Of a DNA stretch of 64,000 nt, positions 1 through 5,168 are shown piece after piece. Numbering within the stretch: the first letter of the stretch is position 1; each line of letters begins with the position of its first letter. This DNA comes from Dehalococcoidia bacterium. GTDB lineage: Bacteria; Chloroflexota; Dehalococcoidia; Plut-88900. The position numbers were made by a program, and so were the translations under genes. The DNA is taken from the NCBI GenBank assembly GCA_965197645.1, contig OZ240219.1, positions 736,001 through 800,000 on the forward strand. The letters run 5' to 3'. Below the pieces are notes generated by a model that worked only from the letters and a program-made list of their open reading frames with translations, did not search any database and was not told the origin of the DNA.

Positions 1-52
1 AGTCGAGCACCTTGATTCCGGTCATCGGGCCCTTTACACCGTTGGAGTTCAC
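1..52 (-). CDS. N-terminus of a CaiB/BaiF family III CoA-transferase (runs off the window edge)
   Basis: GGAGGTG SD then GTG start gives MNSNGVKGPMTGIKVLD, matching the GPLxGIKVL start of CaiB proteins and the paralog at 53335-54531. Confidence 0.7.
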   Translation of the reverse strand, partial: MNSNGVKGPMTGIKVLD

Positions 53-190
53 TGCTCACCTCCCTGAACGTCCTTACAACTGAGTAGTGTATAAACCGTA
101 GGACGGAAGGTCAAACTTTGGGTGGGAGACAAAAACCCATAGCACACTATCTCAAGTTGCACTACCATCGGGCCTCTAAAGCTCAAACCA

Positions 191-334
191 GAGGCTGTAT
201 CAGAACTACTGTTTTGAGGGAGTCCAGAGGGAACCTTCCCTCTGGCAGGGGGCCTGGGGGACGTTCCCCCAGCAATAACACCTTCCGAGGGTGGGCGGTT
301 GGGACCAAGGCATCCGCTTTTGTCAGACAGGCCC
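191..334. mobile_element. MITE-like repeat family B copy (~144 bp)
   Basis: Imperfect terminal inverted repeats (GAGGCTGTATCAGAA / rc GGGCCTGTCTGACAA) enclosing GGAGTCCAGAGGG..CCCTCTGGCAGGGGG..TGGGGGA core shared with other copies. Confidence 0.65.
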
Positions 335-443
335 ACCGGCGAGATGCCAGCGGAGCCGGTCTCCCCTACCCTTTCGGTGGAGTAGAATGAGCCTGCCGAT
401 CCGGCCGGCAGGCTTGCCAACGTCCCACAGGGACTGCCAGGGG

Positions 444-830
444 CTATCCCTTTAAGTAGGCCAGCTTCCGCCAGACCTTGCCGTCCCGGACGGTGTAGAT
501 GTCGGTGCCCCGCATCCTGCCGGGATTGCCCTCGGCGTCCTTCCACGTCATTACCCACCGGGTGACGCATCTATCGCCGGCGGCGAAAAGCTCCTCTTCG
601 TCGAAATACGAATCGAGGAACGCGGCGAAGAGGCCGTCCCAGGCCTCCCTGACCTCGGCTTGCCCCTCGAACCGGGCGCCATCGGGTGCGCCGACCCCCT
701 CGAACACGCAGTCGTCGCTCATCAGAGCCATGATGCCGTCGACGTCCCGATTGTTGAACGCCTCGCCGAAGCGATTGATAACGTCGATGGTCGCCTGGGT
801 CTCGGTGTCTTGTGCCAGTGCCTGCTGCAT
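444..830 (-). CDS. SnoaL-like / NTF2-fold protein
   Basis: 128 aa; FGEAFNNRD...DDCVF...GQAEVR and C-terminal DIYTVRDGKV typical of the family. Confidence 0.85.
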   Translation of the reverse strand: MQQALAQDTETQATIDVINRFGEAFNNRDVDGIMALMSDDCVFEGVGAPDGARFEGQAEVREAWDGLFAAFLDSYFDEEELFAAGDRCVTRWVMTWKDAEGNPGRMRGTDIYTVRDGKVWRKLAYLKG

Positions 831-1895: not shown

Positions 1896-2176
1896 AGAAA
1901 GATGGGGATACGTCTCTTCGTAATTCCTCCCCGTTCTCCCAAGCTTAACGGCCATGTGGAAAGGGCCCTGCGCACCCACACGGAGGAGTTCTATGAGGTC
2001 TACGACGGCGACCTGGATATGGGCCCTCTCAACCAGGCCCTTCGGAACTGGGAGGAGGTCTACAATACCGTACGCCCTCACCAGTCCCTCGGCTACCTCA
2101 CTCCCCTTCAGTTCCTACATCATCAATACAAGTCAAACAAAGGCCTCATGTGTCACTGATCTACCGAACGAGTACA
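1896..2176 (+). pseudogene. IS481-family transposase C-terminal remnant with right end
   Basis: PPRSPKLNGHVER...YNTVRPHQSLGYLTP integrase-core C-terminus; ends in TGTCACTGATCTACCGAACGAGTACA; N-terminal part absent. Confidence 0.8.
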
Positions 2177-2181
2177 TTTCC

Positions 2182-2210
2182 TTGACGCCCCATCGCCCGC
2201 TCTGTATGAT
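2182..2210 (+). promoter_or_regulatory. sigma70-type promoter of tatA
   Basis: TTGACG-17 bp-TATGAT. Confidence 0.65.
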
Positions 2211-2250
2211 GCAAACGTAGCAGAGACGCCCCGGGCGTGGAGGTAAGAAG

Positions 2251-2493
2251 ATGCCCTTCGGCATTGGCCCTCTTGAACTGATAATCGTACTGGTGATCAT
2301 AATCATCATCTTTGGCGTCGGTCGGCTTCCGGAGATAGGCGGCGCGCTGGGTAAGGGCATTCGAGAGTTCAAGAAGTCCAGCTCCGACATTCGAGACGCG
2401 GCCAAGGACATCGAAAAGGACGTGACAGAGCCCATCCGCACCGCCTCCAAGCCCGACAGCAGACCGAAGTCCAGACCCCGCATTCCCGAATAA
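2251..2493 (+). CDS. tatA: Twin-arginine translocase subunit TatA
   Basis: GIGPLEL, TM helix, [22 protein letters not shown] amphipathic helix. Confidence 0.95.
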
Positions 2494-2521
2494 CAGCCCC
2501 TCAAGCTTCTGTTACAGCACA

Positions 2522-2553
2522 GGGCGGGACAGCGTAACGCTATCCCGCCTCTT
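2522..2553 (+). terminator. Hairpin after tatA, probable terminator
   Basis: GGGCGGGACAGCG-TAA-CGCTATCCCGCCT stem followed by CTT. Confidence 0.45.
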
Positions 2554-2675
2554 CGCGGCAAGCGGAGTTGGAACGCACCGGGTGTGGCAACCACCGGGGA
2601 CGGTGTCCGCTTCAGGACATGACCCCGATGGGTCTTTCTCAACTCACACTCTGCCCATTGGAAGAGTTCGCTAAC

Positions 2676-2975
2676 GGCCTCTGCCATAACCCCAGATCGA
2701 GGGAATCCAGGAGGTTCTTGCCGTGGCAGGGCGTTGAAGAACCCTGTCGACCAGATCCCTCAGGACGAACTCCCCTCGCTCGCTACGACCACGACTGTTG
2801 GACTGGGCACGTACCTTTGTCATTGCGATCCGAGGCGAGGGGCAGGCTCTCAGACTCCCGGCAAAGGACCTTCACCCCCTCTCTCTTCTCTCATCTTATA
2901 GGTGCGGGGCCTCGCAGAGGGTTTGGGGGATGTGCCTCCGAAACACCAAAACGTCTCAGGGTGGGAGGGAGGGAG
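2676..2975. repeat. Degenerate mosaic of repeat families A and B
   Basis: Decayed GAGGGAATCCAGGAGG, CCCCTCGCTCGCTACGAC, GTCATTGCGA and TGGGGGATGTGCCTCC...CAGGGTGGGAGGGA pieces. Confidence 0.55.
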
Positions 2976-3007
2976 AAACTATCCCGGGGGGGGTGATTAG
3001 TGAGGAC

Positions 3008-3210
3008 AAAAGGAAAGCCCCGAAGTCTTTTGGTCTAAGACCAACCCGATGGACTAAGTCGGGAACTTCGGGGCCCGGTGCCTGTTGGGCTTCCGTATAC
3101 GGAACCCAAGGCATAGTCGTTTGCTAAATCCTTAGGTGCCGGCTACGTTACAAGCACCTCACTAGTCCGTTTATCATCTGTTTCCAATAGATCACCTCCT
3201 TTCTTAGTGT
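3008..3210 (-). ncRNA. Candidate structured small RNA / small-peptide transcript
   Basis: Own promoter, perfect SD, 14-codon ORF, long hairpin 3079-3113, and a three-way junction closed by GCCCCGAAGT/ACTTCGGGGC followed by a U-rich tail. Confidence 0.55.
3143..3187 (-). CDS. Putative 14-aa peptide METDDKRTSEVLVT
   Basis: AGAAAGGAGGTGATC (full complement of the 16S 3' end) with AGGAGG 7 nt before a TTG start; TAG stop. Confidence 0.45.
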   Translation of the reverse strand: METDDKRTSEVLVT

Positions 3211-3216
3211 ACCCAG

Positions 3217-3246
3217 AGATTACTACACAATTGAGCATGATGACAA
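3217..3246 (-). promoter_or_regulatory. Putative promoter of the small transcript
   Basis: TTGTCA-18 bp-TAATCT on the minus strand. Confidence 0.5.
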
Positions 3247-3257
3247 GTACCACCTCG

Positions 3258-3426
3258 GTGGTTGCGAGCAGGGAGAGTTAGTCCAGGGGGTGGAAAGAAG
3301 CGAAGCAATCTGGGGTGGAGGGGTAGATGTCCCTGTCGGGAAGGAGGCCAGACCTTAATAGATTGCCACGCCCCGACTTTGTCGGGGCTCGCAATGACGA
3401 GGGGGTGTCGTTGCGAGCGAGGCAAT
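3258..3426. repeat. Repeat family A palindromic doublet plus truncated half, abutting the GIY-YIG stop codon
   Basis: GTTGCGAGC..GCGAAGCAATC, ~50 bp spacer, GATTGCCACGCCCCGACTTTGTCGGGGCTCGCAATGAC (3361-3398), then GTCGTTGCGAGCGAGGCAATC. Confidence 0.9.
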
Positions 3427-3738
3427 CTAGTCCGCGGATGAATCCTGACCCAGCAGGTCAACGCTCATATCTCGCCAAGTTGGGTTCATGCCGTTTATCA
3501 AAGCCACTTTCTTTCGTCGTGGACCTGCCTTCAACAGCTTCTCACGAGAAATCGCAGCTTCGGCTGTTTCAGCCATTTCGTAATACACGAGGTGGTTCAC
3601 GTTGTACTTCGACGTAAAGCCAGGCGAAAGCTTTTCTCTGTGTTCGTAAACACGCCGGGGCAGGTTGTTGGTCACACCGGTGTAGAGAACAGTGTGCCTG
3701 GGGTTGGTCATGATGTAAACGTAGAAAGCTCTGTCCAA
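3427..3738 (-). CDS. Small stand-alone GIY-YIG nuclease
   Basis: FYVYIM...LYTGVTNNL.RRVYEH...GFTSKYNV..LVYYE...AISREKLLK...NPTWRD; 103 aa. Confidence 0.92.
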   Translation of the reverse strand: MDRAFYVYIMTNPRHTVLYTGVTNNLPRRVYEHREKLSPGFTSKYNVNHLVYYEMAETAEAAISREKLLKAGPRRKKVALINGMNPTWRDMSVDLLGQDSSAD

Positions 3739-3754
3739 GGTAATCCTCTTGAAA

Positions 3755-4100
3755 CGAGGTTACGGACTCAGCCTAACCGTTGCCGTCGTTGCGAGCGTGG
3801 GGGGGAAGTCCTGAGGGAAGTGGCAGGGAGCGAAGCATTCTGGGGTGGAGGGGTATATGTCCCTGTCGGGAAAGAGGCCAGACCTTAGTAGATTGCCACG
3901 CCCCGACTTCATCGGGGCTCGCAATGACGAGGCTACGGACTCAGCCTAACTGTTGCCGTGGTTGCGAGCAGGGGGAGTTGGTCCTGGGGATGGCCGGGAG
4001 CGAAGCAATCTGGGGTGGAGGGGTATATGTCCCTGTCGGGAAAGAGGCCAGACCTTAATAGATTGCCACGCCCCGACTTTGTCGGGGCTCGCAATGACGA
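3755..4100. repeat. Two tandem ~170-bp family A doublets upstream of the GIY-YIG gene
   Basis: Near-identical units; conserved arm at 3891-3928 and 4061-4098. Confidence 0.92.
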
Positions 4101-4145
4101 GGGCTGGGGGCCCGGTGTTCGAATGGGCCGGTTTGACAGGCAGCC

Positions 4146-5168
4146 CTAAAAGGCCAGGAGGCGGCGGGGGTTCTCGACGGTCATCTGATGTATGGCATCC
4201 TCGCTCACACCGGACTTTAGCAGCGCCGGGATGATCTCCTCGAAGAGCCGGCAGATGTTACGGCTCTGATACCTCGATGGGTCCTGCTCGGTGCTCGGAG
4301 GCCGCATTTCGTAAAGCACTATGTCGTGGGAGAGCACCATCTGGGAAGCATATCCCATGGCGACGAGGGCAGTTATTGTCCCCAGTCTCGCCGAGTCGCC
4401 CAGCTGTCCCAGGGAGTAGGCGAACATGTCAATCCCCACGTTGGCGCCCCGGTCCATGATCTGGGCCAGATGCCTGATGTTGGAGGTGCCGTCGGCGTGG
4501 CCGATGATGCACCTCGAAGGGTCCGCCCCCTCGTCCAGCAGCACGTCCAGCTGGCGCATCCCGATGTTACAGATAGCCCAATCGTAGCTATCGGTGTGGG
4601 TGGTGATGGTGACGCCCAGCTTCCTCTGCACCCGTGCAGCGGCCCTGAACCCCTTTTCCTCCACCTTGGTGGGGCCAAGAGCGTAGGGGACCAGCTCGTC
4701 GCCCCAGGAGGGTGTCGGCCCGGCTATCACCAGCTGGGGGCCGGTGGCCAGCTTGATGATGCCACACTTTGAACCGGTGCCCAAGGCGCCCTCGGTAATC
4801 TCCGTGGCGAAGAACTCCTCGACGGCGTCCAGGGGCCTGGCATGCCAGTAGTAGGGTATGCCCATGCTCTCGGTGTAGAAGCCGGTGGAGGAGACGATGT
4901 GGACCCCGCTGCGCCGGGATGCCTCGGTCAGGAGCCCCATGTAGCGGCCGCAGTCGGAAGTGGTGACGTCGACCAGGCAGGTGAGACCGTGTGCCTCTCT
5001 GGCGCCAGCCAACTCCTTCACCAGCTTTGCCAGCAGATCATCCTCGTCGTAGCTACCCTGGATATCGACCTCGGCGCCCTGCCAGTTGAAGAAAAGGTGC
5101 TCATGGGGCAGAACTACGCCCAACTCGCCGGGGGAGATGTCTCCCAGCACCGTCCTCACTATGGACAT
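4146..5168 (-). CDS. Phosphotriesterase-like amidohydrolase
   Basis: VRTVLGDI, HEH, GIIKLA, TTHT, IGHAD and LSHD metal-site motifs. Confidence 0.9.
   Translation of the reverse strand: MSIVRTVLGDISPGELGVVLPHEHLFFNWQGAEVDIQGSYDEDDLLAKLVKELAGAREAHGLTCLVDVTTSDCGRYMGLLTEASRRSGVHIVSSTGFYTESMGIPYYWHARPLDAVEEFFATEITEGALGTGSKCGIIKLATGPQLVIAGPTPSWGDELVPYALGPTKVEEKGFRAAARVQRKLGVTITTHTDSYDWAICNIGMRQLDVLLDEGADPSRCIIGHADGTSNIRHLAQIMDRGANVGIDMFAYSLGQLGDSARLGTITALVAMGYASQMVLSHDIVLYEMRPPSTEQDPSRYQSRNICRLFEEIIPALLKSGVSEDAIHQMTVENPRRLLAF

Follow-up and report, generated by a model that had tools for sequence, protein, structure and literature searches.

A Chloroflexota member of the Ms_IGR-5 small-RNA family with an extended Shine-Dalgarno and a conserved mini-ORF that supplies strands of its fold

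Introduction

Classic dual-function small RNAs (sRNAs) have an open reading frame (ORF) that can be separated from the base-pairing region, and a peptide whose sequence is conserved in its own right. Here we describe a single-copy RNA gene in a 64,000-nt stretch of DNA from a Dehalococcoidia bacterium of the phylum Chloroflexota (contig OZ240219.1, positions 736,001-800,000; hereafter the window), which belongs to Ms_IGR-5, a family catalogued in Rfam as RF02471 under the description "Actinobacteria sRNA". All coordinates of the RNA are window positions.

The namesake of the family, IGR-5 of Mycobacterium smegmatis (ncMSMEG15794c), was first recovered as an sRNA in that species (as cited in PMC10454040 and bioRxiv 10.1101/2021.12.14.472595) and has been detected in M. 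smegmatis transcriptomes (PMC10454040). Its transcript begins with a +1A, carries an NAD-capped 5' end and is described as "validated but functionally uncharacterized" (bioRxiv 10.1101/2021.12.14.472595). Among streptomycetes, the S. lividans homologue was validated by RNA-seq (PMC8079986), and the S. avermitilis homologue is listed as an sRNA transcription unit from transcript-boundary mapping (PMC8780764). Homologues of M. abscessus and M. smegmatis carry ribosome-protected reads (PMC4974804). A functional study of Ms_IGR-5 was not found in the literature searched, which lay outside the subscription journals. Comparing the window RNA with its relatives in several phyla, we propose that it engages ribosomes through a short reading frame whose second half is also a part of the RNA fold.

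Results

A full-length match to Ms_IGR-5 outside the actinobacteria

An Rfam scan of the entire window gave four matches at or above the gathering score, namely three tRNAs and RF02471. The latter covers 3009-3210 on the minus strand with 51.3 bits (gathering cut-off 45; E = 1.5e-8 for the 64-kb window) and spans the full length of the model (positions 1-184 of 184). At its 5' end stands ACAC followed by a purine-rich extended Shine-Dalgarno (SD) ending in GGAGGUG, with ACACUAAGAAAGGAGGUGAUC aligned to model positions 1-20 at high posterior probability. The conserved GGAC-NN-GUGAGGUG box is present as GGACUAGUGAGGUG at 3155-3168, and the long 3' closing stem with its internal hairpin (model positions ~127-178) is likewise aligned with high posterior probability. 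The family's actinobacterial-host label does not apply, the window host being a member of the Dehalococcoidia. The window RNA, present once in the genome, adds a new member from outside the actinobacteria to a catalogued family of unexplained function. Its G+C content is 50%, compared to 60.8% for the genome, which constraint at the RNA level or recent acquisition could each explain.

An earlier interpretation of the window from its letters alone (the sequence-only reading) had proposed an unannotated and novel sRNA, and the Rfam scan it had suggested as a check removes that novelty. Its picture of a stand-alone structured RNA of ~200 nt is real, and the mini-ORF and super-strong SD that it singled out are conserved features. 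The elements of the transcript are:

3241-3246, minus strand: -35-like hexamer TTGTCA, read directly
3217-3222, minus strand: -10-like hexamer TAATCT, 18 nt after the -35-like hexamer and 6 nt before the A of ACAC (3210)
3009-3210, minus strand: small RNA, Ms_IGR-5 (Rfam match), likely first base A at 3210
3190-3204, minus strand: extended SD AGAAAGGAGGTGATC, a 15/15 complement of the 3' end of the genome's own 16S rRNA
3143-3187, minus strand: 14-codon mini-ORF from TTG (3185-3187) to TAG (3143-3145), peptide METDDKRTSEVLVT
3155-3162, minus strand: invariant box GUGAGGUG, a second SD-like box within the ORF, separated from the stop codon by 9 nt
3004-3014, minus strand: pyrimidine/U-rich tail UCCUUUUGUCC after the closing stem, the likely transcript end, read directly

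The longest 16S complement in the genome

The single 16S gene of the genome ends in ...GGATCACCTCCTTTCT, and the SD at 3190-3204 is therefore complementary to it at 15 of 15 positions, as the sequence-only reading had expected from the canonical tail. This is the longest anti-16S match in the 3.21-Mb genome, which holds 14,727 GGAGG sites (the antisense of the 16S gene being excluded); the next longest complements of the 16S tail are three 12-mers. The SD core is invariant in an alignment of 13 sequences, from which we built a clade covariance model that was then used to align 94 distinct sequences.

A short reading frame conserved across phyla

We followed the mini-ORF through several sets of relatives. 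The own-family set comprises 12 copies, i.e., the window and 11 other genomes of the same taxonomic family. The frame test used 185 distinct copies, of which 10 come from the own family, 29 from searches with the Rfam model, 31 from Methylomirabilota and 115 from pattern searches; a pattern scan of named species genomes listed at least 120 stretches. The counts exclude L085, L108 and L117 (chance matches), L034 (flagged) and L096 (a duplicate of L136). The Rfam-model copies constitute a sample independent of any sequence pattern devised for the analysis.

The GAGGTG of the GUGAGGUG box is found in all 185 copies, and a stop codon follows it after exactly three codons in every one of them (TAG in 142, TAA in 26, TGA in 17). 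An in-frame ATG, GTG or TTG from which the frame is open to this anchor exists in 175 of 185 copies; of the other ten, nine have CTG and L163 lacks a recognisable start. In the +1 frame, this start test succeeded in 0 of 185 copies, and in the +2 frame in 28 of 185. Within the own family, the frame is retained in 12 of 12 copies as M[E/D/K]..DD[K/R]RT.EV..T-stop, and its length differs twice, each time by exactly one codon. A 12-15-codon frame starting 7-12 nt after GGAGG is present in 28 of the 29 Rfam-model copies, and all 31 Methylomirabilota copies examined carry the mini-ORF. These counts, obtained by the codon-conservation check that had been suggested together with the TTG-start 14-codon ORF, argue that the mini-ORF is kept by selection as a reading frame.

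The copies in which CTG takes the place of ATG/GTG/TTG are actinobacterial (L150, L152-L154, L157-L160, L162), and the codon lies 8-9 nt after GGAGG.

The encoded peptide is probably a by-product of the RNA pairing boxes, because residues 2-4 are free to vary, the conserved ones are encoded by paired boxes, and the GAG-GUG codons are never exchanged for synonymous ones (0 of 185 copies). These boxes are GGAC and GUGAGGUG (the latter invariant in the 13-sequence alignment), each with a partner elsewhere in the RNA, and ORF length ranges from 12 to 15 codons. In one group of copies with a swapped pseudoknot (see below), the residues R-T change to V-I together with a matching change in the loop. 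As noted in the sequence-only reading, METDDKRTSEVLVT is charged and polar and has no hydrophobic stretch, and so lacks the hydrophobic, membrane-active character that defines the peptides of type I toxin-antitoxin systems.

We did not retain the idea of an RF1 sensor. In the genome background of 2,252 long frames, the stops are TAG in 48%, TAA in 19% and TGA in 33%. The lack of TGA stops (0 in 10 related own-family copies) means little given this background.

The second half of the frame supplies two strands of the fold

A 226-nt stretch around the RNA folds with z = -3.19, and none of 200 shuffled versions folded as well. The proposed fold consists of the following elements:

3164-3168, minus strand: pseudoknot 5' strand GGACU, within the ORF, partner AGUCC at 3051-3055
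3150-3158, minus strand: 5' strand GGUGCUUGU of a long-range helix, ORF codons 9-11, pairing with 3077-3085
3077-3085, minus strand: 3' strand ACAGGCACC of the long-range helix, just before the closing stem
3154-3159 and 3134-3139, minus strand: AGGTGC and GCACCT, the local stem of the sequence-only reading, its 3' strand being an anti-SD-like box just past the stop codon
3106-3136, minus strand: variable hairpin region, differing in length and sequence among copies
3087-3107, minus strand: conserved hairpin GGGUUCCG-UAUA-CGGAAGCCC, its UUCCG/CGGAA core invariant in the own family and L136
3015-3076, minus strand: three-way junction, closed by a 12-bp stem (3065-3076 with 3015-3026)
3045-3063, minus strand: junction hairpin Ha, its loop AGUCC (3051-3055) being the 3' strand of the pseudoknot
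3032-3042, minus strand: junction hairpin Hb

In the 13-sequence alignment, 96.8% of the cells in the proposed helices are paired, compared to 32-53% with slid partners, and 11 pairs change on both sides compared to 2.6 in shuffles. In the 94-sequence alignment, whose model contains the nested helices and thus favours them, 96.7% of cells are paired (76.9% shuffled, 33-48% slid) and both-side changes occur in 33 of 42 pairs. The closing stem changes on both sides in 12 of 12 pairs (98.5% of cells paired), Ha in 5 of 5 (96.1%), Hb in 4 of 4 (91.5%) and the long-range helix in 5 of 9 (98.1%), all over the 94 sequences. The conserved hairpin is paired in 87% of cells in this wider set, where many copies lack it. 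The pseudoknot, absent from the alignment model, is paired in 98.9% of cells and occurs in the variants CGAC:GUCG, CGAU:GUCG and GGAU:AUCC. Divergent Methylomirabilota have exchanged both of its strands, with GGUGA on the ORF side and UCACC on the loop side; no other single observation speaks as strongly for this interaction.

The long-range helix has a pair probability of 0.77 in the window transcript. The AGGTGC/GCACCT stem spanning the stop codon, which the sequence-only reading had put forward, does exist around the stop, but with a pair probability of ~0.23 and a fold 2 kcal/mol worse it is a minor alternative to the covariation-supported helix that uses the same 5' strand. The long hairpin predicted at 3079-3113 corresponds to the conserved hairpin at 3087-3107, and the predicted three-way junction with two hairpins is present and covarying, though we count 12 bp rather than 10 in its closing stem. 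Rfam's consensus helix 1 joins the 3' half of the SD to the bases after GUGAGGUG (codons 10-11). It has two non-standard pairs in the window, and in the 94 sequences its cells are paired about as often as in shuffles (89.1% and 88.7%), without covariation. This helix and the long-range helix draw on the same bases and are mutually exclusive, the long-range helix being the better supported.

Two further observations concern the ends of the RNA. In many actinobacterial copies, ..CUCCAU takes the place of a terminal U-tract; judged by eye, this sequence would also fit the SD core. In the divergent Methylomirabilota copies L180-L199, the last ORF codons contain CACCUCC, a literal anti-SD, which pairs with the RNA's own SD in minimum-free-energy folds; these copies may switch between a self-sequestered and a ribosome-bound SD.

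An independent gene in changing neighbourhoods

In genus g4 (nine loci), the RNA is flanked upstream by a divergently transcribed gene for a CoA-transferase III and downstream by a convergent gene, which encodes a BtpA protein in one locus and an LRR protein in another. Locus L002 is flanked by an acetyl-CoA hydrolase/transferase gene upstream and Meth_synt_2 downstream, and L012 by an AHSA1-like gene and a short-chain dehydrogenase (SDR) gene. Mycobacterial loci have a class-IV-aminotransferase-like gene upstream, in agreement with the report that MSMEG_5795 (the ADC lyase gene) adjoins IGR-5 (bioRxiv 10.1101/2021.12.14.472595). Clustering of the ORFs that flank the pattern-scan loci, a noisy procedure owing to spurious ORFs at high G+C, gave neighbours conserved at the genus level but none across genera. 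Because the neighbours differ among genera and the downstream gene is convergent in g4, Ms_IGR-5 is an independent gene and not a leader. The other features near the RNA in the window are:

2133-2687, minus strand: 184-aa ORF, 320 nt downstream of the RNA, no Pfam match, unlinked to the RNA in relatives
49-570, minus strand: 173-aa ORF, no Pfam match
3427-3738, minus strand: GIY-YIG ORF, co-oriented, with the RNA ~220 nt downstream of it
2818-2830, 3387-3418, 3784-4099 and 17 further sites: dispersed repeat with the core CGTCATTGCGAGC, often as inverted pairs

The statement that no long ORF follows the RNA applies to its immediate flank; the 184-aa ORF lies on the same strand 320 nt further on. 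The conclusion drawn from it, that the RNA is not the leader of a downstream gene, is borne out by the neighbours in relatives rather than by the absence of an ORF. The repeat core CGTCATTGCGAGC has 24 matches in the window with up to 2 mismatches, compared to 1.9 expected. Matching stretches at 2840-2878 and 3360-3402 have very high depth in metagenome contigs, and many genomes in the metagenome samples therefore carry the element.

Distribution within and beyond Chloroflexota

Ms_IGR-5 is present above the cut-off, with one copy each, in all 11 other genomes of the window's family (50-63 bits); searches of 29 other families of the class found no copy. Among 150 further genomes sampled evenly from the phylum, the Rfam model matched a single one and the clade model none. 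We rejected this one match (G169/L013; 27.2 bits, below the cut-off), in which only the SD and terminal stem align and the GGAC..GUGAGGUG box is missing. Within Chloroflexota, Ms_IGR-5 thus appears limited to one family.

In an even sample of Actinomycetota, the Rfam model matched 44 of 151 genomes (29%; 4 of the 44 flagged unpublished) at E <= 0.001 and 20 of 151 above the cut-off. The clade model matched 56 of 101 sampled Methylomirabilota genomes (55%), exactly once in each, with scores of 119-163 bits in 21 genomes and 36-58 bits in the rest. A Methylomirabilis copy reaches 67.7 bits, and one from Ca. Polarisedimenticolia 51.6 bits (genome flagged unpublished). Nearly all matches listed by the pattern scan are from Actinomycetota (Mycobacterium, Streptomyces, Micromonospora, Nocardia, Nocardioides, Cellulomonas), and one is from a Ca. 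Methylomirabilis metagenome-assembled genome. Ms_IGR-5 is, in short, not confined to actinobacteria.

Over 196 aligned columns, the window clade groups with a Methylomirabilis-like group (local support 0.86). Its mean identity is 65.5% to that group, 57.6% to the other Methylomirabilota group and 59.1% to actinobacterial copies. This grouping, obtained from short sequences and a model built from the same two groups, is no more than a hint that the two share an origin or that the RNA was transferred laterally. The patchy distribution, with one family in the phylum, makes the RNA a candidate for lateral transfer of a small-RNA gene. An exact pattern of the window SD plus GTGAGGTG gave no matches in viral contigs, so carriage by phages is unsupported at that stringency.

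Transcript ends and traces of expression

The promoter TTGTCA-18-TAATCT proposed by the sequence-only reading is present on the minus strand. By eye, the upstream flanks of all 12 own-family copies show a TTG-type hexamer equally far from the RNA start, and relatives carry TATAGT or TATATT at the -10 position. At the other end, the closing stem is followed by TCCTTTT in the window, and the own-family copies retain a U-rich tail. We infer from these elements that the hexamers form a working promoter and that the U-rich tail terminates transcription.

A weak hint of expression comes from RNA runs X1 and X2 (two studies), each with one contig of ~200 nt that matches 3005-3187 with 12 differences and 2 gaps. 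The predicted 5' end at 3210 lies 23 nt beyond the end of both contigs. We do not read their end at 3187 as a transcript end, as assembly graphs break at boxes common to many relatives. The unique flanks are uncovered in X1 and X2, an absence of cover that proves nothing, and word shares of 0.06 give no basis for a habitat claim.

Discussion

We consider it probable (roughly 0.6) that the window RNA is a free-standing, translated, ribosome-engaging RNA in which fold and translation exclude each other, making it a translation-coupled switch or a ribosome-occupancy device. It would be transcribed alone, from a promoter of its own ~7 nt upstream of ACAC, and end at the three-way-junction stem with its U-rich tail. 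The 15-nt 16S complement at the 5' end would recruit ribosomes to the 14-codon frame, which would then be translated. The 3' half of the frame would double as a structural strand, with GGACU engaged in the pseudoknot and GGUGCUUGU paired with ACAGGCACC. Because the second half of the ORF supplies two strands of the 3' domain, a ribosome translating the frame would melt the fold, and the folded RNA would hinder the ribosome. A ribosome at the stop codon would have its anti-SD opposite the internal GAGGUG, which lies 9 nt from the stop and 6 nt from the last sense codon, a spacing like that of an SD. We infer a competition between translation and folding, in which the function of the RNA would lie. 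The sequence-only reading came close to this proposal with its idea of a dual-function or 30S-engaging RNA, although the peptide is probably not a separate product.

Several points weigh against this proposal. The RNA of the window organism is known from sequence alone, and the X1 and X2 contigs stem from a ~93% identical relative, may be derived from DNA and end at 3187. A consensus scan of 2400-4200 called neither the promoter nor the terminator and reported 3710-3737 (minus strand) as its sole promoter-like site; for the terminator it is uninformative, since its rule admits only loops of 3-8 nt and is unsuited to a junction-type terminator. In a ViennaRNA model of the full-length transcript, the SD (3190-3204) is mostly paired with the 3' tail (3004-3014) at a mean unpaired probability of 0.26, and the SD may thus not be freely accessible, though such pairing may be generic to a purine tract and a U-tract. 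The sequences compared are phylogenetically related, so that the counts overstate the number of independent events, and the alignment behind the counts for the nested helices was itself fitted to a model containing them. The Thr codon of the mini-ORF uses all four synonymous forms (ACA, ACT, ACG, ACC), as a constrained peptide also would, and the peptide core was not found in the text-format supplements of two mycobacterial ribosome-profiling studies (PMC9094748, PMC4633059).

Were the RNA a micropeptide gene, the 14-residue peptide (...[R/W/G]-T-x-E-V-x-x-x) would be the functional product and the structure would only stabilise or tune its mRNA. This would fit the presence of the ORF in all sets with its canonical start (175/185) and stop (185/185), the recurrence of T-x-E-V across phyla with wobble-like variation at the Thr codon, and the ribosome-protected reads on homologues (PMC4974804). 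We nevertheless regard it as unlikely. Residues 2-4 are unconstrained, and the length varies between 12 and 15 codons. The conserved residues lie on paired boxes (GGAC with GUCC, GGUGNNUGN with NCAGNCACC), GAG-GUG is never replaced by synonymous codons, and R-T gives way to V-I where the box becomes GGUGA and the loop matches it. Moreover, ~140 nt of conserved, covarying 3' structure are hard to explain for a 14-codon mRNA. Conversely, a purely non-coding RNA acting as a base-pairing regulator or 30S sponge, its frame incidental and untranslated, would agree with a 15-nt 16S complement that goes far beyond the needs of initiation and is unique in the genome, and with a family filed as an sRNA gene in Rfam and first recovered as an sRNA in M. 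smegmatis. It strikes us as less likely still, because start and stop positions vary only among start and stop codons, the frame is always open (compared to 0/185 in +1 and 28/185 in +2), and indels in the own family are in-frame and comprise whole codons. The ribosome-protected reads on homologues speak against it as well, though 30S or 70S binding without elongation could produce them (PMC4974804).

The remaining explanations tie the RNA to its neighbours. A cis-acting leader, in which translation of the mini-ORF controls read-through of the terminator into the 184-aa ORF (2133-2687), would have a similar layout of leader peptide, alternative helices and terminator, with the long-range helix and the local stem in competition and a same-strand ORF 320 nt downstream. 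Synteny largely refutes it and makes it highly improbable: the downstream gene is convergent in nine g4 loci, downstream families differ by genus, the 184-aa ORF has no Pfam match and is unlinked in relatives, and the S. avermitilis homologue is listed as an sRNA transcription unit (PMC8780764). To the further suggestion of the sequence-only reading, that the RNA is a partner of the adjacent GIY-YIG gene and repeats, we give practically no credence. It had in its favour the co-oriented ORF at 3427-3738 with the RNA ~220 nt downstream, but the co-occurrence check placed the GIY-YIG matches at least 500 kb from the RNA in four of four relatives (G002, G003, G005, G008). There is, in addition, no GIY-YIG gene among the RNA neighbours in L002, L004, L005 and L012, and 24 copies of the repeat are scattered over the window.

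Returning to a translated RNA in which fold and ribosome compete, a more far-reaching version of that proposal is doubtful, and we offer it tentatively. Ms_IGR-5 would be an ancient ribosome-sensing device common to at least three to four phyla, which parks or cycles ribosomes and reports spare translational capacity, for example in stationary phase. The super-SD would bind almost the entire single-stranded 16S tail and so capture free 30S subunits, the pseudoknotted fold would melt as the mini-ORF is translated, and the invariant GAGGUG would hold the terminating ribosome again. The window lineage would have acquired the RNA laterally from a Methylomirabilis-like donor. If this were true, the ribosome itself would be the ligand of a free-standing, riboswitch-like RNA.

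A new family member by itself adds little to the catalogue. The cross-phylum comparison shows that selection keeps a near-complete complementarity to the 16S tail, the start codon, the fixed distance between the stop and the internal SD-like box, and a fold that uses the frame as a strand, which suggests the ribosome as the direct partner of the RNA. This bears on a widespread single-copy family of mycobacteria, streptomycetes and Methylomirabilota that has no known function in the papers searched.

Comparison with known systems

The window RNA shares with leader-peptide attenuators and an upstream-ORF sensor (PMC12121999) a short ORF that would remodel helices ahead of a terminator-like stem. 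The defining feature of leader attenuators, a conserved, co-oriented and regulated downstream gene, is absent from Ms_IGR-5, whose neighbours vary and are convergent in nine loci. With dual-function sRNAs (PMC12612679) it has in common that a short transcript joins a small ORF to a conserved structured RNA. Unlike in the classic examples, the window ORF is part of the fold, and the peptide is unconstrained where the RNA is unconstrained. The loop AGUCC, a possible seed for target pairing, is occupied in the intramolecular pseudoknot. The closest match is Ms_IGR-5 itself, with which the window RNA shares the ACAC start, the extended SD, the GGAC..GUGAGGUG box, the junction-type 3' stem, a single copy per genome, an independent transcription unit and the same mini-ORF design. 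It differs from the usual members in its ORF of 14 rather than 12 codons, its genuine U-rich tail and its non-actinobacterial host. The long-range helix and the pseudoknot supported here extend the Rfam consensus structure of Ms_IGR-5, which contains neither.

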